Source of the DNA: Minisyncoccia bacterium
GTDB taxonomy: Bacteria; Patescibacteriota; Minisyncoccia; Phycocordibacterales; XYD1-FULL-46-19
Length of the DNA: 47,544 nucleotides
NCBI GenBank assembly: GCA_041601795.1
Contig: JBFIHK010000002.1
Span: 1 to 47,544 of the forward strand
Direction: 5' to 3'
The notes under the pieces are model-generated. The model ran no database searches and was not told where the DNA came from. It was given only the letters and a program-made list of their open reading frames with translations. A program made the translations under genes and the position numbers. Positions 2,635 through 24,018 of this stretch are shown piece after piece; the first letter of the stretch is position 1; every line of letters starts with the position of its first letter.

Positions 2635-3927
2635 TTATTCTTTTTTCGTATTGTTGTTTTTTCGTTGGGTCAGAATTTTTTCTAATTCTTCTTCTGCCAC
2701 CTTAGCATCACTCCAAGGCTCTTTGGCACCATTTTGGCGCATAATATAGGGGTCGGTACCCTTACCAGTGATGATAACCACTCCTTTAGAGGTAACTTTT
2801 GTTAAAGCTTCTTTAATGGCTAACCGTCTATCCATTTCGATTGTTTTAGGGGTAGAACTAATACCTTCTGCTATCATGTTTACTATTTGTTTTGGATCTT
2901 CATCATAAGGATCCTCATCGGTTAAAATAATGTGTTGGCAATGTTTGTCGGCCACTTTACCCATAGCAACTCTTTTTTGAGTGTCGCGCCCACCACCAGC
3001 TGATCCTAAGACGCAAACTTTTTTATAGTCTTTATAGAGGGAATATATTTTATCTAAAGAGTCGGCAGTATGAGCATAGTCAACAATTACATCAAAATCT
3101 TGATAAGGGGTTAAATTTTTGTTTTGGGGGTAAATTTTTTCTACGCGTCCAGGAATGCCGTTAAAATTTTCTAAACCTTTTTTAATTGTTGGTAAATCAA
3201 TATCTAAATGCTCAGCTATTTTAATAGCTGATAAGATATTGTACAGATTAAAAATACCAGCTAAATGACTTTGAATTTTTGTATTTTTGTAGGTAAAAAA
3301 TAAACCGTCGATAGTAGAAGTGTAGGGTTCGGCCTCTGTGAGGTGAGTTTGAATAATTTTTTCTAAAGGGGGTAGTTTTAATTTAAGACTTTCTTCGTCG
3401 TCGCCATTGGTAACTAAAATTTTATTTTTTTTAGGAGAATTTTTTAAAGTTTTAACTATTTTTAACTTAGCTTTAGTATATTTTTCATAAGAACCGTGAG
3501 ACTCTATGTGTTCTGGTGAAAGATTGGTGAAGATTAAACCATTTAAATAAATAAATTTATGTCGCCACTGCTTAGTGCCTTCTGAGGTCATTTCGATAAT
3601 GGCACAAGTGGAGCCTTTATGAACGGCTTCGTATAAAAACTTTTGCAAGAAAGCCCGTCCAGGCATTGTCATTTTTAATAAATTTGGTTTAGTGTCAGAA
3701 TTAATTTTAAAACGTAATGTCGAAGCAATGGTAGTTTTGTGACCAGCAGCCTCTAAAATAGAATTCAAAATTTCCACTGTACTAGTTTTGCCTTTAGTAC
3801 CAGTAATACCAATAGTTATTATTTTTTTAGTCGGAAAACGGTAATAAATAGCTCCACCTAAAGCAATTAGAAAATGATAAATAGAGACGATAAAATTAGG
3901 GGTTATTTTTTTTATTTTATTTAGCAT
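2635..3927 (-). CDS. murE: Mur ligase, UDP-N-acetylmuramoyl-tripeptide synthetase (MurE-like)
   Basis: P-loop GITGTKGKTST. C-terminal TDEDPYDEDP sits in the position of the MurE DNPR motif. Adjacent to a FemAB gene. Confidence 0.8.
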   Translation of the reverse strand: MLNKIKKITPNFIVSIYHFLIALGGAIYYRFPTKKIITIGITGTKGKTSTVEILNSILEAAGHKTTIASTLRFKINSDTKPNLLKMTMPGRAFLQKFLYEAVHKGSTCAIIEMTSEGTKQWRHKFIYLNGLIFTNLSPEHIESHGSYEKYTKAKLKIVKTLKNSPKKNKILVTNGDDEESLKLKLPPLEKIIQTHLTEAEPYTSTIDGLFFTYKNTKIQSHLAGIFNLYNILSAIKIAEHLDIDLPTIKKGLENFNGIPGRVEKIYPQNKNLTPYQDFDVIVDYAHTADSLDKIYSLYKDYKKVCVLGSAGGGRDTQKRVAMGKVADKHCQHIILTDEDPYDEDPKQIVNMIAEGISSTPKTIEMDRRLAIKEALTKVTSKGVVIITGKGTDPYIMRQNGAKEPWSDAKVAEEELEKILTQRKNNNTKKE

Positions 3928-3928
3928 A

Positions 3929-4957
3929 TTAAATATTTAATTTTTTTTTAATTATATAAAGATAATACCAAAAAGGTGATATAACCAAATCAAAAGTAGG
4001 GCCAAAATCTTTAATTAAGCCTGTAAACTGTTTTTTAAAATGACTCACATTTTGCCACGATAAATCTGTTCCATGGCTAACACCGCCAAAGCTATAATAT
4101 TTGGCTCCCAAGCGAGCACTTTCTAGAAAACCTATCCAATGAGCCAAATAAGTGGAAAATTGTTCTCTATAAGAACTACTAGAAGCTCCGAAAACAAATA
4201 AAGCTGTCCCACCATAAACTACTATTAAATTAATGGCTAATATTTCTTGTTTAAATTCTGATACAACTAAAAAACCATTCTTTTGATTATTGAGACTATT
4301 AAAAATATGTTGATAGTATTTTTTAGGGTGAAGTTTAAAATTTGCTCGATTAGCTGTTTCTTCCATTAAACGATAAAATTCAGGGAAATACTGACTTAAA
4401 TTATTAGAGATAATTTTAGTGGTGGTGCCTCTTTTTGTGGCCGTTCTAATAGAATAGCGAGTGTTTTTATTGAGTGAATTTAATAATTCCGTTTCAGGTT
4501 TTGATATGTCCACCACCCATTCATATCGAGGTTGGCTTAAAACAGAGTAATAACCTTTTTTAGGGGTGGGGTGAGTTTTTCTTTTAATGTTTCTTAAAGC
4601 CTCAGGAGTAAAGAATTGAGGATTAAAACGAATAAAGGCAATATTGTTTTTTTGACTATATTGTTTAAGGTAAAAAACTAAAGCTTCTACACTTTCTTGG
4701 TTTGTATTTTTTGTTAAAACAATAGGGCCATGGGGAATGAAAGCTTGTTTTTTACCTCCAGCTAGAGGGGTTGTTAAAATTTGTAAAAATATTTGAGGTT
4801 TTGTTTGTTTTTGTAAAATGAGCCTCTCTACTTTTACTCCAGGTCTTTCTTTTTGCCATAAGTTATATAAAAAACTTTGAGTTAGGTGGCCACCGATGGC
4901 GTTTATTGTTTCATCGTACATTGACGAATCTAGGGTAGTGAAAGTGAAATCTTTCAT
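3929..4957 (-). CDS. FemAB-family peptidoglycan interpeptide-bridge aminoacyltransferase
   Basis: 342 aa. Length and pattern (NKNTRYSIRTATKRG, FKLHPKKYY, YGGTALFVFGASS, YYSFGGV) are typical of FemX/FemAB proteins. Translationally coupled to murE. Confidence 0.7.
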   Translation of the reverse strand: MKDFTFTTLDSSMYDETINAIGGHLTQSFLYNLWQKERPGVKVERLILQKQTKPQIFLQILTTPLAGGKKQAFIPHGPIVLTKNTNQESVEALVFYLKQYSQKNNIAFIRFNPQFFTPEALRNIKRKTHPTPKKGYYSVLSQPRYEWVVDISKPETELLNSLNKNTRYSIRTATKRGTTTKIISNNLSQYFPEFYRLMEETANRANFKLHPKKYYQHIFNSLNNQKNGFLVVSEFKQEILAINLIVVYGGTALFVFGASSSSYREQFSTYLAHWIGFLESARLGAKYYSFGGVSHGTDLSWQNVSHFKKQFTGLIKDFGPTFDLVISPFWYYLYIIKKKLNI

Positions 4958-6688: not shown

Positions 6689-8146
6689 ATGTTTAATTTT
6701 GAAAAATGGCTTTTTAGTTTTGTTGTTTTCAGTAGTTTAAGTGCTATCTTGTCGATAGTAGTTTTTTCTCCTGTTTTAAATAAGGATAAGTGGCTGACAT
6801 TAGCAGAAGAAGCTTTAGTGGTGTTTGATTTAAAATCTAAAGCTGTTTTGTCGCAAGTAGAAGATATTAAAGTTTTTGAACCTGTAGATTGGGTCGAAGA
6901 AGGGGCAGTTCAAGTGATAGACGAAGGCAATCCTATGAATTTTAAAGTTTGGCGACCGCAGGTAGAAGTTAAAGATAATTTAATTAAAAATAAAATTGAT
7001 TTTTTAGAAATAAATTTTCCGACCGGTAAAATAATTAAACACAAATCGGGTCAGTCTGAACTAAAAAAAGATATTTTGGCGGCGGGTGATCCTCAAGGTT
7101 GGGGTGGAACACCAGCTGGACTTTATAATGTTTTGAGTAAAAATGAAAAATCTTTTTCCATGTCTAGTAGTGCTTATATGCCTTATGCTGTGCATTTTTA
7201 TGGTAAGTATTTTATTCATGGTGAGCCATATCTTACCACTGGAGATAAAATAGACTCTGTTTATTCTGGGGGCTGCATCAGAGTAGCTGACAAAGATGTT
7301 CAAAATATTTTTACCGCTAGTGATGTAGGGCTACCTGTTTTAGTTATTGATAAAAATTACATTGATCGCTCATTTATAGTCAAAGATTTACCTAAACCAT
7401 TAGTATCGGCTAAATCTTTTGCGGTGGTTGACTTAGAGTCGGGGGTGGTTTTAGCTGACAAAGAAGCCCAAACCAAAAGACCAATTGCTTCTATTACTAA
7501 ATTAATGACAGCGGTAGTGGTAGCTGAAAATATAGATTTACGTAAAGGGGTTTATGCTACCGATAATATGTTGGAAGCTTATGGGTCGACCGAAGGTTTA
7601 ACTAGTGGGGGTTTTTATAAGGCGGTGGAACTTTTTCATTTATTGTTAACAGAAAGTTCCAATGACGCAGCCGAGGTTTTAACTGGTTTTTTAGGACGTG
7701 AGGCTACTATTAATTTAATGACCGAAAAAGCTAAAAGTTTATTTATGGCAGACACTAGCTTTGCCGATCCGTCTGGGTTTGATAGGGACAATATTTCGAC
7801 CGCTAAAGATTTAACTTTTTTAGCTCGTTATATTTACAACAATCGAAAGCCTATTTTAGACATTACAGCTGGGAGAAAAGTCACCACTTTTGGACCCATG
7901 CAATTTGAGGTTAGCAATTTAGTTAATAAAAATAGTTTTAAAAATGGTATTGGTTTTATTGGTGGCAAAACTGGCTTTATTAACGATGCTCGTAACACCG
8001 GACTTTTTATTTTTAAGATGAAAAATAGTTTAGGCGAAGAGTTTCCAGTAGGGGTGACCGTTTTAGGGTCTGAAAGTTTAAAGCAAGATACTGAAAAATT
8101 GCTCGAGTGGGTAGAAGAGGAGTATGAGCTTGAAAGGGTGGGGTAG
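6689..8146 (+). CDS. Fusion protein: L,D-transpeptidase (YkuD) domain + D-alanyl-D-alanine carboxypeptidase (S11/PBP5-like) domain
   Basis: N-terminal anchor. YkuD motif HGEPY...SGGCIRV. Then SxxK (ASITKLM), SxN (ESSNDAA) and KTG (GGKTGF) motifs of class-A low-MW PBPs. Confidence 0.8.
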   Translation: MFNFEKWLFSFVVFSSLSAILSIVVFSPVLNKDKWLTLAEEALVVFDLKSKAVLSQVEDIKVFEPVDWVEEGAVQVIDEGNPMNFKVWRPQVEVKDNLIKNKIDFLEINFPTGKIIKHKSGQSELKKDILAAGDPQGWGGTPAGLYNVLSKNEKSFSMSSSAYMPYAVHFYGKYFIHGEPYLTTGDKIDSVYSGGCIRVADKDVQNIFTASDVGLPVLVIDKNYIDRSFIVKDLPKPLVSAKSFAVVDLESGVVLADKEAQTKRPIASITKLMTAVVVAENIDLRKGVYATDNMLEAYGSTEGLTSGGFYKAVELFHLLLTESSNDAAEVLTGFLGREATINLMTEKAKSLFMADTSFADPSGFDRDNISTAKDLTFLARYIYNNRKPILDITAGRKVTTFGPMQFEVSNLVNKNSFKNGIGFIGGKTGFINDARNTGLFIFKMKNSLGEEFPVGVTVLGSESLKQDTEKLLEWVEEEYELERVG

Positions 8147-8189
8147 GGTTGGTTTACTTGAAAAAAATTTGAGATTTAGGTAATGTTTT

Positions 8190-8405
8190 ACTTGGGTAAG
8201 TAACAACAGTTGTCATGGTGACATCTCTGTTGGTTGCTGGGTAGGCAACCAAATGAGTAGTCGGGTTCGATGCCCGAAACTGGACCGATAAGAGAGAAAT
8301 GGTTGTCTAGAATAAGTGGGAGCCGTTGAGACTTTTTCGCTAGAAAAAGAGGAGGCGTCGTTGGAATACCACTCTCCATTAATCAAATTGAGGTTTGTTA
8401 CCCTT
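8190..8405 (+). ncRNA. Unassigned structured RNA candidate (or long structured 3' UTR of the preceding gene)
   Basis: No credible ORF. Several hairpins: GTCAtggTGAC; GGTTGC-tgggtag-GCAACC; perfect T-arm-like TCGGG-TTCGATG-CCCGA at 8261-8277; CTTTTTC-gcta-GAAAAAG. Immediately followed by an intrinsic terminator. Confidence 0.35.
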
Positions 8406-8407
8406 CT

Positions 8408-8443
8408 GAGCTTGTCACTTTGTGTGGCAAGCTCTTATTTTTT
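8408..8443 (+). terminator. Intrinsic terminator
   Basis: Stem gagcttg...caagctc (8408-8434) followed by ttatttttt. Confidence 0.7.
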
Positions 8444-8451
8444 ATAGGTTT

Positions 8452-8621
8452 AGGGAGGGATTCGGTCACAAATAATTCTCTTGCCGTCGCTCGAGAATTT
8501 CCGCGACCCCGGCTCGGCTATTCACACTGCTGTGTTAATTATGCCTGCGCCTTTCGAATCCCTCACGCGACTGAAGCAGTTCAGTCGCTCCTCTCCTTGT
8601 CAAAATTTTCAATTTTGCCTG
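8452..8621 (-). repeat. tRNA-Ser-linked trailing element
   Basis: Sense remnant 8452-8464 equals tRNA gene 8627-8639 (13 nt). Antisense box 8553-8564 ttcgaatccctc. 9-bp hairpin with CTGC loop at 8567-8588. Confidence 0.7.
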
Positions 8622-8740: not shown

Positions 8741-9187
8741 TTATTTGTTGTTGTCACCACTATGATCTGTTGTCATAGGGGTGTAGTCTTCAGCTGTTGT
8801 CGGCATTGGATTTGGGTTTGTTGTCGGTACAGTGCTAGCTTCAGATTCTGAAGACATAGTTTCTGGAACGTTTTCTTTGGTGCTGTTTTCTGTTTTTGGA
8901 GCTTTTGATTTAAGACTCTGGGTTTGGGGTGGGGTTTTAGGTTTAGTATCTGCAATAAAAGATCCAGTTGGACGATTTAAGCTTTTGGAAATAAAAAGGA
9001 TATAGATAATTTCTAAAATACCTAAAGTGTTAATCAAGATTAAGGCAATAAACCATAATTTATGATTGTTGCGAGCTGCTTGCCAGAGGGCAATAGCTTT
9101 CCAAACTATAGACCAGACGATAATAAAGATCAGTATCGACCAAAAAATAAAAACGACACTATCAGAAAAATTCAATGTTTGTTCCAT
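8741..9187 (-). CDS. Small membrane protein with Pro/Thr/Ser-rich C-terminal tail
   Basis: Two TM helices (IFWSILIFIIVWSIVW; LWFIALILINTLGILEIIYILF) followed by a low-complexity tail. Confidence 0.6.
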   Translation of the reverse strand: MEQTLNFSDSVVFIFWSILIFIIVWSIVWKAIALWQAARNNHKLWFIALILINTLGILEIIYILFISKSLNRPTGSFIADTKPKTPPQTQSLKSKAPKTENSTKENVPETMSSESEASTVPTTNPNPMPTTAEDYTPMTTDHSGDNNK

Positions 9188-9260
9188 AATTGTTATAGTA
9201 CAATAATATTATTAAAAATCAACCACGACTTAAAAGGTCTATATAGTATATAATAAGAAA

Positions 9261-10309: not shown

Positions 10310-10381
10310 GCCCCGGTAGTTCAATGGATAGAACTGCGGACTTCTAAGCCGTTAATGGGGGTTCGATTCCCTCCCGGGGCA
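10310..10381 (+). tRNA. tRNA-Arg (anticodon UCU)
   Basis: GCCCCGG-TA-GTTCAATGGATAGAAC-T-GCGGA-CTTCTAA-GCCGT-TAAT-GGGGG-TTCGATT-CCCTC-CCGGGGC-A. One A.G mismatch closes the anticodon stem. Confidence 0.85.
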
Positions 10382-10543
10382 CAAAGAAAAAAGACGCTAT
10401 CAAGCGTTTTTTTTATTTGTGTTTCGGAGAAACTAAACTGCTTTAGTTTCGTGAGGTAATCGAAAAGGTTCTTCCTTACCGTCTCGCCGAATAGAGCGAG
10501 ACGGTGGAAAACCTGTACTGTTCCTGTAAGGAAAGATTCCCTC
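10382..10543 (+). repeat. tRNA-Arg(UCU)-linked trailing element
   Basis: 9-bp hairpin with CTGC loop at 10429-10450. Antisense box gaggtaatcgaa at 10453-10464 (11/12 to the complement of the tRNA T-arm). Nested hairpin at 10479-10504. Sense remnant gattccctc at 10535-10543. Confidence 0.7.
10386..10414 (+). terminator. Intrinsic terminator directly after tRNA-Arg(UCU)
   Basis: aaaaaagacgct-atca-agcgtttttttt. Confidence 0.55.
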
Positions 10544-10678
10544 TTGGTATTCTAAAACAAAACGTAAGTTTTGGCTGATTATATTTTAGTAGCCCCGGGA
10601 AGGAATCGAATTAGTAAGAAAATTTTATTTAAAACGTTATACAGTATAGTAAATAATTATTACTTAACTATCTTGTAC

Positions 10679-11245
10679 ATGTTAACCAAAATCATTGTTA
10701 TTTTAATTGTTGGTGTAATTGGTGTAGGAGGTTATTTGGTCATTTCTAGTGAGGGTGAAGTTTATGATACCGATTTATCAAACAGTACATCAACTGCAAC
10801 TACAACAACATCTAATATTAGTGAATCAAAAGAAGACAACTTTATTGAGGAAGATTTGTCTATCAAGTGGAAACAAATAGATGCTCCTAATTTTACTTTA
10901 TTTATTCCGACTGATTGGAAATTTAATCAGCTACAAGGTATAGATTCATATTTAGGGGAGTTGGTGGGGCCTGAAGCTAAATTAACTTTTGACTTTGGTT
11001 TATATTCTGATTCACTGGTGGCAGACGACGATCCTAATTATGTGATTACATATGAAAATATAGATGGTTACAAAGCTAAAATAATTAAACCTAAAACAAT
11101 TGGTCTGGGTACAGTTGGTGTTTATTTCGATAATGTTGGTGGAGGTGGCTTTCAAACTACTAAATTACAGATATCTGGCCAAGATTTATCTAAGAAAAAT
11201 CAAGAAATAGCTCTACAAATATTTAGATCTATAGAGTTTAAATAA
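10679..11245 (+). CDS. Hypothetical N-terminally anchored secreted protein
   Basis: The track ORF 10571-11245 starts at TTG inside the tRNA-linked region. The first ATG (10679) gives MLTKIIVILIVGVIGVGGYLV signal anchor, then a Thr/Ser linker. Confidence 0.6.
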   Translation: MLTKIIVILIVGVIGVGGYLVISSEGEVYDTDLSNSTSTATTTTSNISESKEDNFIEEDLSIKWKQIDAPNFTLFIPTDWKFNQLQGIDSYLGELVGPEAKLTFDFGLYSDSLVADDDPNYVITYENIDGYKAKIIKPKTIGLGTVGVYFDNVGGGGFQTTKLQISGQDLSKKNQEIALQIFRSIEFK

Positions 11246-11369
11246 TTAATTGTAAAGAAAGCTTCAGCTTAATATTTTTTAACAGATATTTAATAACAAA
11301 ATCTTTTCTAGTCCCTTAGTGTGTTGCTACAAAATCAACAGCCCCGAAGCTTTTACTGAAACATAAAAA

Positions 11370-11645
11370 CTGAGGGACTCTCGAGCTACACTCACTGGTA
11401 CTTTTCGATTAAATATTCTTAATCAGATATTTAATAACGAAAAGTCTTTCGAGATACCCGTACTTTTTTTGGGACTCGGTCACAACTCTTCTGTTTCGAT
11501 AAATCTACACAACGAAGGTCGCGACCCCGTCTCAGCGACAAGTACTCACTTGGTTCGTCTTGTATACCGCTTCCGACCTTCGAGTCCCTCAGCGCCTACA
11601 AAACAAAAATATTCTAAAGCAATACTTTAGAATCTAATGTTTTTG
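11370..11645 (-). repeat. tRNA-Val-linked trailing elements, stacked modules (proximal 11471-11645, distal 11370-11470; older decayed copy likely 11246-11369)
   Basis: 17-nt antisense box at 11579-11595 is the exact reverse complement of tRNA gene 11649-11665. Sense remnants gggactcg at 11471-11478 and ctgagggactc at 11370-11380. Confidence 0.75.
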
Positions 11646-11719
11646 TGCGCGCTGAGGGACTCGAACCCCCGGCCTACCCGGTGTAAACGGGTTGCTCTAG
11701 CCAACTGAGCTAAGCGCGC
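11646..11719 (-). tRNA. tRNA-Val (anticodon UAC)
   Basis: Reverse complement GCGCGCT-TA-GCTCAGTTGGCTAGAGC-A-ACCCG-TTTACAC-CGGGT-AGGCC-GGGGG-TTCGAGT-CCCTC-AGCGCGC-A. Confidence 0.9.
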
Positions 11720-11758
11720 AATATTGCTACAATACCTTATTTGTATTACTTTATCAAG

Positions 11759-12490
11759 ATGGGTTTTGAACCAAAAATTATATTTGAAGATGAAAATGTT
11801 CTAGTTTTAGACAAGCCAGCGGGCTTGTCTGTTCATGGTGACGGTTTTAAAAAAGAAATTACTTTAGCTGACTGGTTGGTAGGCAGGTGGCCTAGTATTG
11901 TAAATGTAGGGGAATCAACTATTAAAAACGGTCAAGAGATTTTGCGGCCAGGAATAGTTCATCGTTTAGATAGAGATACTAGCGGAGTGATGGTGGTGGC
12001 TAAAAATGAAACAACTTTTAAATATTTAAAAGAGCAATTTAAAAATAGACAAGTTCAAAAAACTTATAGAGCTTTGGTTAAAGGAGTTTTTTCGAAGCCA
12101 GAAGTAGAAAAAATAGTTTATCTACCTATTGGCCGAAGCGATAAAGATCCTAGGAAAAGGGTCGCCAGTCTTAAAGCTGCTGGTAAGTTAAGGTCAGCCG
12201 AAACTAGGTTTAAAGTTTTGGCAACTTCAGGTGAAGGGTATTCTTATATTGAAGCTTATCCGAAGACGGGCCGGACTCATCAAATTAGGGTTCACTTAAA
12301 AGCCATTCAACACCCTATAGTAGGAGATAAGTTGTATGCCGGGGAGTTATTTAATTTATCAGATTTAAATAGACAAGCTCTCCATGCTTATAAATTAACC
12401 CTTTCTTTACCTGGAGGTATAAAAAAAGAGTTCACAGCTCCCATTCCAGCTGATATGGCTTTAGCCCTTGATAAGCTTAAATTATCGTGA
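11759..12490 (+). CDS. rluD: RluA/RluD-family 23S rRNA pseudouridine synthase
   Basis: HRLDRDTSGVMVVAK catalytic motif. Start moved to ATG 11759 (the track start 11741 is TTG, adjacent to tRNA-Val). Confidence 0.85.
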   Translation: MGFEPKIIFEDENVLVLDKPAGLSVHGDGFKKEITLADWLVGRWPSIVNVGESTIKNGQEILRPGIVHRLDRDTSGVMVVAKNETTFKYLKEQFKNRQVQKTYRALVKGVFSKPEVEKIVYLPIGRSDKDPRKRVASLKAAGKLRSAETRFKVLATSGEGYSYIEAYPKTGRTHQIRVHLKAIQHPIVGDKLYAGELFNLSDLNRQALHAYKLTLSLPGGIKKEFTAPIPADMALALDKLKLS

Positions 12491-13161: not shown

Positions 13162-13304
13162 CAATTGAACAAAGTTTAAAATTGTACGCGAGAGGCGCAT
13201 CTGTTTTTTATAAAATAAAAAACAGGAGCAGGACTTGAAAAGACCCCGCCCTTCTAGAAGGGCGGGGTTGATGTGAGTTGACCCCAAGCCCCCTCGTTAC
13301 GCAC
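13162..13304 (+). repeat. tRNA-Leu-linked trailing element
   Basis: Antisense pieces cgcgagag(g) at 13187-13195 and aggacttgaa at 13230-13239, separated by an AT hairpin. GC hairpin at 13244-13267. TTGACCCC end. Decayed sense remnant aagccccctcgttacgcac at 13286-13304. Confidence 0.65.
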
Positions 13305-14308: not shown

Positions 14309-14519
14309 CAAAAATAATAAGTTTAAACTGAAAGTTTGAACGATTGTATTTTTGGTGTTGATCTATCCGGAATCGAAAGACGGAGGCGGTACACAAGACG
14401 AGGAGAAAAACGACGAGTGCTTGTCGCCGAGTCCGGGGAGGAAGCACTTAGTGAACGAAGACCGGAGGGATGAGTGAACTTAGTGACTTGACCCCGATTC
14501 CCGATAGGCACCCAAAAAT
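14309..14519 (+). repeat. tRNA-His-linked trailing element bounded by a perfect 24-nt direct repeat of the tRNA 3' end
   Basis: gattcccgataggcacccaaaaat at 14292-14315 and again at 14496-14519. Antisense box ccggaatcgaa at 14367-14377 (10/11). Confidence 0.8.
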
Positions 14520-23436: not shown

Positions 23437-23482
23437 CTTGCGATTATATGAAAAATCAGTATAGTAAAACAGTTATAAAAAC

Positions 23483-23905: not shown

Positions 23906-23993
23906 GATACTTCCACTAGCCGGAACGCGACGGCGTGAGGCGGGCCTGCGCAATTTTTCAGCAGAAAAATATGTGTGAGTGGAAGTGAAATAA
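23906..23993 (+). repeat. Short element after rplK with sense-antisense-sense copies of the rplK 3' end
   Basis: gtggaagtgaaataa at 23891-23905 is repeated at 23979-23993. The antisense acttccac is at 23909-23916. Confidence 0.65.
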
Positions 23994-24018
23994 TTACTGT
24001 TACGAATAAATAAATTTA

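Follow-up and report, generated by a model that had tools for sequence, protein, structure and literature searches.

What are the repeats stacked behind the tRNA-Val gene of a Minisyncoccia bacterium? The DNA that we analyzed is a 47,544-nt stretch (47.5 kb; hereafter the window, whose numbering is used throughout) at the start of contig JBFIHK010000002.1, and the repeats fill its positions 11246–11645. An earlier note had seen there three modules, increasingly decayed with distance from the tRNA, that it took for products of repeated insertion at one point of the T-loop, as well as a 17-nt inverted repeat shared with the tRNA itself. We found the three modules where the note had put them (a complete type 1 module, a type 2 module, and the 5′ half of another), and we show that each is not insertion debris but a member of a conserved, covarying family of structured elements. 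The family exists, its cores covary and fold on the sense strand, and its arms match whichever gene lies upstream. Among close relatives, units are gained, tandem-duplicated, swapped, and lost, and insertion duplicates the end of the target. Our reading, which we hold with moderate confidence, is that the Val block is an array of three small, noncoding, structured, target-templated insertion modules (which we call tRNA-tail modules). We read these modules as mobile and as retained by selection once inserted.

On the strand of the upstream gene, a module consists of a hairpin (L), an arm X′ that is the reverse complement of the last 8 to 25 nt of that gene (X), a core that forms a three-way junction, and a copy of X in direct orientation. 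This copy pairs with X′ in the stem that closes the core, and a unit, which is noncoding, measures about 90 to 170 nt. At the Val locus, all features lie on the minus strand. The tRNA-Val(TAC) gene occupies 11645–11719 (ARAGORN; 69 bits with the Rfam tRNA model), and the segment X that is the source of the module copies corresponds to its last 21 nt, from the T-loop to the discriminator plus C (11645–11665). Next comes hairpin L1 (11596–11644), made of an A-tract, a ATTCTAAAG/CTTTAGAAT stem, and a T-tract. The hairpin attctaaag/ctttagaat, which had been noted between the tRNA and the 17-nt box, is indeed there and was missed by a consensus terminator scan because its stem is AT-only. The X′ arm of the proximal, type 1 module (T1) is GCGCTGAGGGACTCGAA at 11579–11595, a perfect complement of tRNA-Val from T54 to the acceptor 3′ strand, and this is the 17-nt box of the earlier note. 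The repeat holds up well, since TTCGAGTCCCTCAGCGC matches the window with three mismatches or fewer only at 11579–11595 (plus) and 11649–11665 (minus), while shuffled sequences average 0.02 matches and none of 100 reaches two. The 17-nt box supplies the 5′ side of the stem that closes this module, and the inverted repeat is an alternative pairing, in which X′ can equally well reach across L to the real gene end. L1, X, and X′ together form a single long hairpin (11579–11665) with a predicted minimum free energy of −51.5 kcal/mol, and this interval is a palindrome with 41-nt arms, 83% complementary, centered on the small hairpin ATTCTAAAG/CTTTAGAAT. The 400-nt spacer as a whole folds far better than shuffles on both strands (z ~ −5), as expected of any set of inverted repeats.

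The T1 core (11479–11578) is a three-way junction detected by a covariance model (CM R1; match 11469–11590, 85 bits, E ~1e-22), with P2 as GTC-GGA-[hairpin]-GA-GAC, then GG, then P3 as GGTCGCGAC...GTTGTGACC, and single-sequence folding yields the same three helices as the model. Its 3′ arm, the X copy CGAGTCCC (11471–11478), is shortened and pairs with GGGACTCG of X′; the truncation is identical in L277 (L plus a number denotes another locus or contig that was compared). After an A7GTAC spacer (11460–11470) comes the type 2 module (T2; 11370–11459), which scores weakly with the second model (CM R2, 12.5 bits, E 0.68, filters off) and was assigned by hand alignment to L075, L026, and the Lys copy of the window, with its fold computed. 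It comprises X′ GGGTATCTCGAA (11448–11459), P2 ACTTTTCG...CGAAAAGT, the junction J23 ACCAG, P3 GAG-TGTAG-CTC, and, on the 3′ side, a GAGA bulge (2 nt) followed by the X copy GTCCCTCAG (11370–11378). A 50-nt spacer (11320–11369) separates it from the outermost remnant (11271–11319), which was identified from direct and inverted repeats and consists of X′ CTAAGGGACTAGAA (11306–11319), AAG, and the 5′ half of P2 (11271–11305). This remnant ends abruptly beside the stop codon of the open reading frame (ORF) at 10571–11245. The boxes that had been reported, ctgagggactc (11370–11380), gggactcg (11471–11478), and the degraded ttctagtcccttag (11306–11319), are all present, as is the outer repeat of part of the second module, a 31-nt direct repeat (11271–11301 and 11412–11442) that is 87% identical. 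In two related copies, the 5′ side of P2 is formed by the cagatatttaataac repeat seen there.

The two main core types have distinct consensus folds. In T1, the closing stem P1 is followed by AAG, a P2 of the form GNC-GGA-[hairpin]-GA-GN′C, GG, and a P3 of the form GGU.GCNGA...UCNGU.ACC. Among seven seed sequences, 18 of the 27 pairs show compensatory changes (RNAalifold), and the corresponding CM finds 20 copies in 615 kb. In these 20 copies, 92.5% of the cells are paired, compared with 65% in shuffles and 34 to 45% in slid controls, and double changes occur at 25 of the 27 pairs. In T2, P1 is followed by AAAAG, a long P2 with an AGUA/GAA-like internal loop, GUACNG, and a P3 of 5 bp with a UGUAA cap; the seeds show compensatory changes at 17 of 27 pairs, and its CM gives 23 matches (E ≤ 1), of which ~21 are convincing, with 92.6% of cells paired against 66.6% in shuffles. 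The ratio of G:U to A:C in paired columns of these structure-fitted alignments is 73:20 in the cores and 36:13 in P1, and since G:U is far above A:C, the fold belongs to the tRNA-sense strand. Several unpaired motifs are also kept (GGA/GA, the AGUA/GAA-like loop, the pentaloop UGUAA, and two bulged nucleotides of the 3′ arm), and the same tip hairpin is used in the T1 and T2 scaffolds.

The closing stem often has an additional feature. X′ is frequently split by a 24- to 26-nt hairpin (H) exactly at the boundary between acceptor and T-stem, giving X′a (7 to 11 nt, complementary to the acceptor 3′ strand), H, and X′b (complementary to the T-stem 3′ strand and T-loop). This form is found in 34 of 70 first modules, in which H ranges from 18 to 33 nt, and it is a hairpin in 34 of the 36 copies with X′a. 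Because H sits at the acceptor/T boundary, the closing stem together with H reproduces the acceptor/T-arm helix of the neighboring tRNA. Hairpin L is often a perfect palindrome that starts with the base right behind the tRNA and ends with the first one of X′a. The loop AGCGAATACTTGGAGCT is common to the hairpins L of a tRNA-Ser unit (L277, ~3905–3950) and a tRNA-Val unit (L021, ~3540–3590), that is, in different genomes, which means that at least some hairpins L move along with the unit and are not the native terminator of the tRNA.

No RNA family in Rfam accounts for these structures. At gathering thresholds, Rfam 15 reports only tRNAs over the window, and at permissive E-values (at the locus, the tRNA-Ser region, and ten other module-bearing loci) it adds only spurious miRNA and plastid hairpins. 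Self-cleaving ribozymes (hammerhead, hepatitis delta virus [HDV]/theta, twister, twister-sister, pistol, hatchet, and hairpin) are absent at E ≤ 10 from 11100–11800 and at E ≤ 1 from the ten module-bearing loci. Several candidates were considered and set aside. A hammerhead-like reading of GAAAG/CUGAcCGA (CUGANGA/GAAA) has the wrong order of junction strands and one nucleotide too many. For a transfer-messenger RNA (tmRNA) or a permuted or split tRNA, ARAGORN makes no call, D and anticodon arms are missing, and the 5′ arm complements the T-loop instead of copying it. A Box C/D or H/ACA guide RNA does not fit either, as there are no C/D boxes or ACA and the pairing is continuous across T54–C56. 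Finally, a retroviral-type primer-binding site or cDNA of a mature tRNA is at odds with an X′ that excludes CCA and a direct repeat that often has 1 to 11 nt of trailer.

Is this design peculiar to tRNA-Val? It is not, since it occurs at other tRNA genes and at the ribosomal protein gene rplK. Of the seven tRNA genes in the window, six are followed by it on their own strand, namely Lys, Ser, Arg-TCT, Val, Leu, and His, and so is rplK; tRNA Arg-GCG has no module. The modules occur on both replication strands, and GC skew in the window is uniform. The tRNA-Ser(TGA) module (8455–8620, minus; CM R1, 91.6 bits) consists of a hairpin, X′a GGAGAGG, a 25-nt H, X′b GAGGGATTCGAA, a T1 core, and the X copy CGAATCCCTCCCT, and the tRNA-His module (14310–14515, plus; 80 bits with CM R1) also has a T1 core, with a perfect 25-nt direct copy, CGATTCCCGATAGGCACCCAAAAAT. 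T2 modules are found in the tRNA-Arg(TCT) region (10383–10604, plus; CM R2, 55 bits), where a hairpin, X′a, H, and the module (10453–10543) precede a lone second X′, GTAGCCCCGGGAAGGAATCGAA, and in the tRNA-Lys region (860–1077, minus; CM R2, 32 bits), where the same order of hairpin, X′a, H, and module (923–1013) is followed by the 3′ portion of another T2, which has an X copy of its own. The tRNA-Leu(GAG) region (13163–13300, plus) gives weak CM matches and was compared with L277 and L281; it has a hairpin, X′a GTACGCGAGAG, H, X′b AGGACTTGAA, a third type of core, and a decayed X copy. Directly after the stop codon of rplK lies a T1 module (23906–23996, plus; CM R1, 36.6 bits, E ~5e-9) composed of GATA, X′ CTTCCACT, the core, and GTGGAAGTGAAATAA, a copy of the last 15 nt of the ORF. 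Its 5′ arm complements the first 8 of these 15 nt, which gives an 8-bp stem and nothing tRNA-like.

Beyond the window, modules are common in Paceibacteria, which are Candidate Phyla Radiation (CPR) bacteria, and are apparently undescribed. The window itself comes from a CPR bacterium of Paceibacteria type. Our first set of relatives was fetched via the neighboring rluA gene and close relatives via homologues of L11 and the Cob-adenosyltransferase. In rluA-fetched relatives, tRNA-Val is usually 2 to 20 nt from tRNA-Arg(TCT), and most have no module in this spacer; longer spacers contain 100- to 140-nt units, with the complement after a variable hairpin at the start and a copy of the tRNA-Val 3′ end at the end. 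Among 110 tRNAs in Patescibacteria loci, 10-mers from the last 24 nt of the tRNA recur downstream for 17 in direct and 14 in inverted orientation, and upstream for none. All 21 good T2 matches are 28 to 270 nt behind a same-strand tRNA, and such a tRNA is upstream of 57 of 78 metagenome matches, most of the others being at contig ends or behind tmRNA-like or decayed tRNA ends. Scanning metagenomes with a 24-nt pattern from the P2 tip gave 47 loci, in which the tip is identical by construction and the cores are similar beyond it. The tRNA species that precede these copies number at least 16 and comprise Ile, Leu (four anticodons), Arg (two), Lys, Pro, Val, Ser, Gly, Trp, Tyr, Asp, and Gln (two). 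Each time, the arms match the local tRNA. The 5′ arm is closer to the real tRNA (8.66 of 10 positions) than to its own 3′ arm (7.68 of 10). We also considered lineages of modules specific for one tRNA and found none, the mean core identity being 0.66 for the same tRNA and 0.67 for different ones in a set that is biased by the search pattern. A terminator-like site lies between tRNA and module in 38 of 70 cases, compared with 5% in the background. The earlier suggestion that a terminator-like hairpin keeps the 17-nt box out of the tRNA transcript agrees with this frequency, and the hairpin may indeed act as such an insulator.

Some modules have unusual neighbors. In L224 (~9030–9231), a T1 module with X′a, H, X′b, and a 16-nt direct repeat follows a tmRNA-like 3′ end (…GCGGTTCGATTCCGCGCATCTCCACA) at which ARAGORN calls no tmRNA. 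Modules in L234 (400–730) and L266 (12020–12320, minus) are behind a shared, apparently structured RNA-like region (…GCCGARGTTTTGCG…CGCAAAACYGAGTCC…) that ends in a T-loop-like GTTCGAG/…CACC; there is no tRNA or Rfam match to it in L234 (L266 was scanned by ARAGORN alone). In L239 (~60–170), ARAGORN predicts a tRNA with the anticodon TTA ("tRNA-Stop"), followed by a T1 module with a matching 21-nt direct repeat. In L013 (~3390–3900), the place that modules have in other genomes, after tRNA-Val and a hairpin, is occupied by an ORF with a LAGLIDADG-like motif (…GAMLYLGEGGK…) and an N-terminal helix-turn-helix-like part.

Comparison of related loci reveals units coming and going. The rplK site is empty in L273, L274, L281, and L282 (...GTGAAGTAA|TTACAG...) and filled in the window, L271, and L277, where a 76-nt insert and an exact 15-nt duplication precede the shared downstream sequence. 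At tRNA-Ser, L277 has a new unit that separates the tRNA from the hairpin, X′a, and H found directly behind tRNA-Ser in the window. This unit brings a hairpin of its own, another core, and a perfect duplication of 20 nt, and the old module that lies beyond it is truncated. There is one module at tRNA-Leu in the window and three in L277, while L281 keeps the L/X′a/H frame of the window around a T2 core. L241 and L226 differ by a single unit, whose 26-nt duplication takes in 10 nt of trailer, L232 equals L238 plus one unit between flanks that are 98.5% identical, and identical units occur in tandem in L004, L263, and L225. The copy-number polymorphism that the earlier note had proposed to look for thus exists, both between L232 and L238 and in the tRNA-Leu arrays; for the window itself, the only population variants were identical Logan contigs from one sample (SRR29257383). 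The direct repeats measure 15 to 27 nt and have variable ends that often extend past the tRNA, and they were therefore copied from DNA or a precursor rather than from mature tRNA. In its acceptor part, the X copy is bimodal (perfect in ~40%, decayed in ~45%), with or without its pairing partner, and it looks as if born as a duplicate and then left to drift. At the Val site, module similarity is incongruent with host relatedness, and other subfamilies replace modules in close hosts. In addition, L226 (~2440–2446) and L239, from genomes ~90% identical, differ in the hairpin L after tRNA-Arg-GCG by a reverse-complemented 5-nt loop (TATGT versus ACATA) between unchanged stems, a flip of a palindrome's spacer that implies hairpin or template-switch events at the DNA level.

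Once in place, some copies are far better conserved than the coding DNA beside them, and the proximal Val module is one of these. Between the window and L277, the Val L1 and T1 are 96% identical and rluA 87%; between the window and L281, the values are 94% and 68%. The His copy is 93% identical between the window and L277, and the rplK copy is 94.5% identical next to a gene that is 93.9% identical. L226 and L239 differ at 3 positions in a 140-nt module and at 231 in 2,250 nt of flank. The few changes in the P2 of the Val L1-T1 unit are compensatory, and compensatory changes separate the window from L277 in both the rplK and Val copies (in the rplK copy, the innermost P1 pair goes from U-A to C-G).

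These comparisons support the scenario of serial insertion in part. The block does consist of separate stacked modules with copies of the tRNA 3′ segment at their borders, and stacks of this kind do grow by insertion beside such a copy. The age gradient does not hold. The proximal module is orthologous and 94 to 96% identical between genomes whose adjacent rluA is only 68 to 87% identical, and it is therefore old and kept, not young. Preservation is not monotonic with distance either, as the three 5′ arms match tRNA-Val at 17/17, 9/12, and 12/14 positions. Nor is insertion always tRNA-proximal: the distal part of the Val array differs between the window and L277, and T2 of the window, which is not at this position in L277, has the proximal T1 on one side and, on the other, an outer remnant similar to the second Val module of L277. 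This arrangement suggests that T2 inserted at the X copy of T1 and not directly at the tRNA. Since the repeated segments start at T54, C56, G57, or T60 and often end 1 to 11 nt beyond the tRNA, there is no fixed insertion point in the T-loop.

How might such modules move? In the mechanism that we propose, the module would be a single-stranded element, most likely RNA and possibly single-stranded DNA (ssDNA), whose X′ pairs like a guide with X. It would enter immediately 3′ of any copy of X, including that of an older module. As the right end of the element is X, one guide could recognize both junctions and leave the upstream gene intact. The near-identity of tRNA sequences in different species would help spread between genomes, by recombination that uses the tRNA and the X copy as anchors, and arrays would expand or shrink by recombination between X copies, with unselected copies decaying. 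No enzyme is encoded in cis, and any machinery would therefore act in trans. The route by which arms are written and the function of the modules we can only infer.

Several points weigh against this reading. There is no transposase, integrase, or reverse transcriptase in the window or recurring near modules, and the 217 ORFs within 2.5 kb of modules cluster into syntenic housekeeping genes only. The variable ends of the direct repeats do not fit a fixed staggered cut. Pairing of a guide accounts for homing to the same gene in other genomes and not for first-time retargeting, as at rplK. With a terminator-like hairpin in front, transcription of the module is not assured, and the excess of G:U derives from alignments fitted to the structure. 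Strong in situ conservation fits a host function better than a purely selfish element. We found no prior description in Rfam or in the literature searched, a literature check that is incomplete, so that an earlier description may exist.

The main rival is a host-functional tRNA mimic, a possibility that we regard as real if doubtful. Here, the module would be a conserved part of the pre-tRNA 3′ trailer acting in cis, with the closing stem and H imitating an acceptor/T-arm minihelix that is recognized by tRNA end-processing (RNase P at the 5′ edge, RNase Z or the CCA-adding enzyme at the 3′ edge) or by another tRNA-binding factor. It would separate or insulate read-through RNA or tune tRNA maturation, and gains and losses would be ordinary duplication, recombination, and decay. 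Orthologous copies conserved like the tRNA itself, with compensatory changes, are what this reading expects, as are a sense-strand fold, the conserved unpaired motifs, a hairpin of 18 to 33 nt placed exactly between the acceptor and T-arm complements in 34 of 36 copies, and a 5′ arm that tracks the real tRNA slightly better than it tracks its own 3′ arm. However, the rplK copy is conserved with only an 8-bp stem that resembles no tRNA, and a mimic recognized by shape needs no sequence specific to its neighbor. The stem pairs through the discriminator into the trailer, which would leave the mimic without a free NCCA-like end, and the module is often behind a terminator-like hairpin. The distribution is also patchy, with most relatives lacking a module in the Val–Arg spacer and subfamilies replacing each other in close hosts.

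There are two other explanations. In one, which we consider quite unlikely, the modules are nonautonomous ssDNA elements of the IS200/IS605 palindrome-associated transposable element (PATE) or integron-attC type, inserted seamlessly 3′ of X by an HUH (Y1) transposase or a structure-specific tyrosine recombinase that acts in trans and recognizes the hairpins, with X′ as an extended guide that pairs at both junctions with X, the sequence of cleavage and target. X is present at both junctions and X′ is complementary to both, empty sites are exactly restored, structure is conserved over sequence with bulged stem bases, and the fold is strand-specific. Moreover, GCGAAGC recurs at the P2 tip, a sequence that forms a very stable DNA mini-hairpin, and the loop flip between L226 and L239 points to hairpin dynamics at the DNA level. 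Yet neither a Y1 transposase nor an integron integrase is found in the 47.5-kb window or near other copies (no whole genome was searched), known IS200/IS605 guides have 4 to 5 nt and ends that are not copies of the target, modules occur on both replication strands under uniform GC skew, and the conserved unpaired motifs resemble RNA modules. The other explanation is that the repeats are the attL/attR identity blocks of tyrosine-integrase elements (prophages, integrative and conjugative elements [ICEs], or integrase-less relatives similar to cis-mobilizable elements [CIMEs]) that integrated serially into the T-loop/3′ end of the tRNA, with remains of these elements in between. Units are stacked and flanked by direct repeats of the segment from the T-loop to the 3′ end, a signature of tRNA-targeted integration that Williams reportedly described in 2002, and CIME accretion at tRNA genes is known in streptococci. 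We consider this highly improbable and largely refuted: units have just 90 to 230 nt, no integrase is present among the ORFs of the window or those recurring within 2.5 kb of modules, an integrase is site-specific while the same cores are used at rplK, at a tmRNA-like end, and at 16 or more tRNA species, covariation and strand asymmetry of the cores are RNA-like, an inverted copy X′ that att scars lack is always there, and the viral contigs checked contain no copies. Phage attP sites were also considered; pattern matches in IMG/VR were due to chance and the covariance models found nothing in 100 viral loci.

Compared with known systems, the modules share single features with several and, tRNA-like structures apart, lack a defining feature that we tested in each. 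Like tRNA-targeted integrative elements and CIMEs, they have a direct repeat of the T-loop-to-3′-end segment flanking the insert (15 to 27 nt), an intact tRNA, and arrays at one tRNA. They differ in having ~100 to 200 nt, no integrase, and not one site per family but one core family for many tRNAs and a protein gene, as well as in always carrying an inverted copy of the target and an insert that is a covarying three-way junction. With IS200/IS605 and PATEs they share a base-pairing guide near a hairpin that recognizes both target and element end, seamless 3′ insertion, and nonautonomous, hairpin-rich, strand-specific copies. However, the guide of a module would have 8 to 22 nt rather than 4 to 5, the right end repeats 15 to 27 nt of the target, no TnpA is seen in the window or near copies, and there is no replication-strand bias in the window; of the typical end structure (subterminal hairpins, no terminal inverted repeats, no target duplication, and a 4- to 5-nt target 5′ of the left end), the hairpins are present. 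Repetitive extragenic palindromes (REPs) and REPINs with their RAYT, and miniature inverted-repeat transposable elements (MITEs), are likewise short, abundant, noncoding hairpin repeats near gene ends and terminators, which are mobilized in trans and long-lived in genomes. Their terminal sequences are fixed and shared, whereas module arms are rewritten for each neighboring gene and it is the branched interior fold, the core, that is shared and conserved.

Integron attC sites are imperfect palindromes that act as a folded single strand, with structure conserved over sequence, extrahelical bases, and a variable terminal structure, and new cassettes enter arrays beside the attachment site. Modules are similar in these respects but have no GTTRRRY/RYYYAAC core sites, no cassette ORF, and no IntI in the window or near copies, and their arms are the end of the upstream gene and differ at every site. 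In R2 retrotransposons, the 5′ HDV-like ribozyme is co-oriented with a highly expressed stable-RNA gene, and its P1 includes 28S rRNA target sequence, much as the stem of a module is partly target. R2 encodes a reverse transcriptase and an endonuclease and has one fixed target, unlike modules, which have many targets and match no self-cleaving ribozyme by Rfam model or by core. Viral tRNA-like structures and the theta (HDV-like) ribozymes behind phage tRNA genes also mimic tRNAs or sit behind them and engage tRNA processing. The coaxial helix of acceptor and T-stem expected of a tRNA mimic, with a branch at the 7/66 boundary, is present in 34 of 70 first modules. However, modules have no Rfam match, copy the 3′ strand of a specific neighbor, also occur behind rplK, and would have no free acceptor end, as the paired stem takes in the discriminator and often part of the trailer, with the T-loop replaced by the junction.

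If our reading is correct, reduced CPR genomes hold dozens of structured elements whose ends are written from the upstream gene; we know of no described bacterial repeat, mobile element, or RNA family with this property. It would amount to a new principle of mobility or recombination, with target-templated arms, seamless insertion that spares essential tRNA genes, and interchangeable cores, and would offer a reason why tRNA loci are hot spots for rearrangement (Val/Arg inversions) and assembly breaks. The natural retargeting set (at least 16 tRNA species, a tmRNA-like end, and rplK) could show how arms are programmed, and the two covariance models can annotate hundreds of unexplained GC-rich intergenic stretches in Patescibacteria. 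A bolder version, which we rate as unlikely, sees in the cores scaffolds of a new class, made of RNA or ssDNA, that serve programmable, guide-directed insertion. X′ would be a guide of up to ~22 nt that places the insert immediately 3′ of its complement and is rewritten from the target in the process, and a novel enzyme of Patescibacteria would act in trans. This would be a natural, compact, sequence-programmable form of DNA insertion, distinct from IS110 bridge RNAs, CRISPR-associated transposons (CASTs), group II introns, and OMEGA systems.

Further observations concern the surroundings of the modules. The tRNA-Val/tRNA-Arg(TCT) pair upstream of rluA varies in arrangement (tandem on either strand, convergent, divergent, or split by 0.3 to 1.4 kb), as judged from window positions 10310–11719 and from L003, L010, L012, L013, L017, L018, L021, L024–L026, L031, and L037. 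In the window, the ORF at 10679–11245 lies between the lone Arg-type X′ and the truncated Val-type module, which have opposite orientations; this suggests inversions or recombination between modules. Behind the tRNA-Ser module, a GC-rich stretch (8146–8450, minus) has no Rfam or CM match; within it are GGAGAG… and GGGCATCGAACCCGAC, which complements a T-arm other than that of tRNA-Ser, and these look like leftovers of older modules or of a lost tRNA. The Logan contigs, identical to the window, break exactly at the 3′ end of tRNA-Ser (8621) and at ~12957 near the end of rplS, consistent with repeated arms breaking short-read assemblies. Finally, the closest relatives have an 83-amino acid GIY-YIG ORF between nusG and rplK (L271, 9718–9969; L277, 18895–19146) that is missing from the window (23437–23482), and a GIY-YIG domain is also part of a fusion with one homologue of the Cob-adenosyltransferase (P0248). 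Small genes of the GIY-YIG kind seem to be mobile in this clade.

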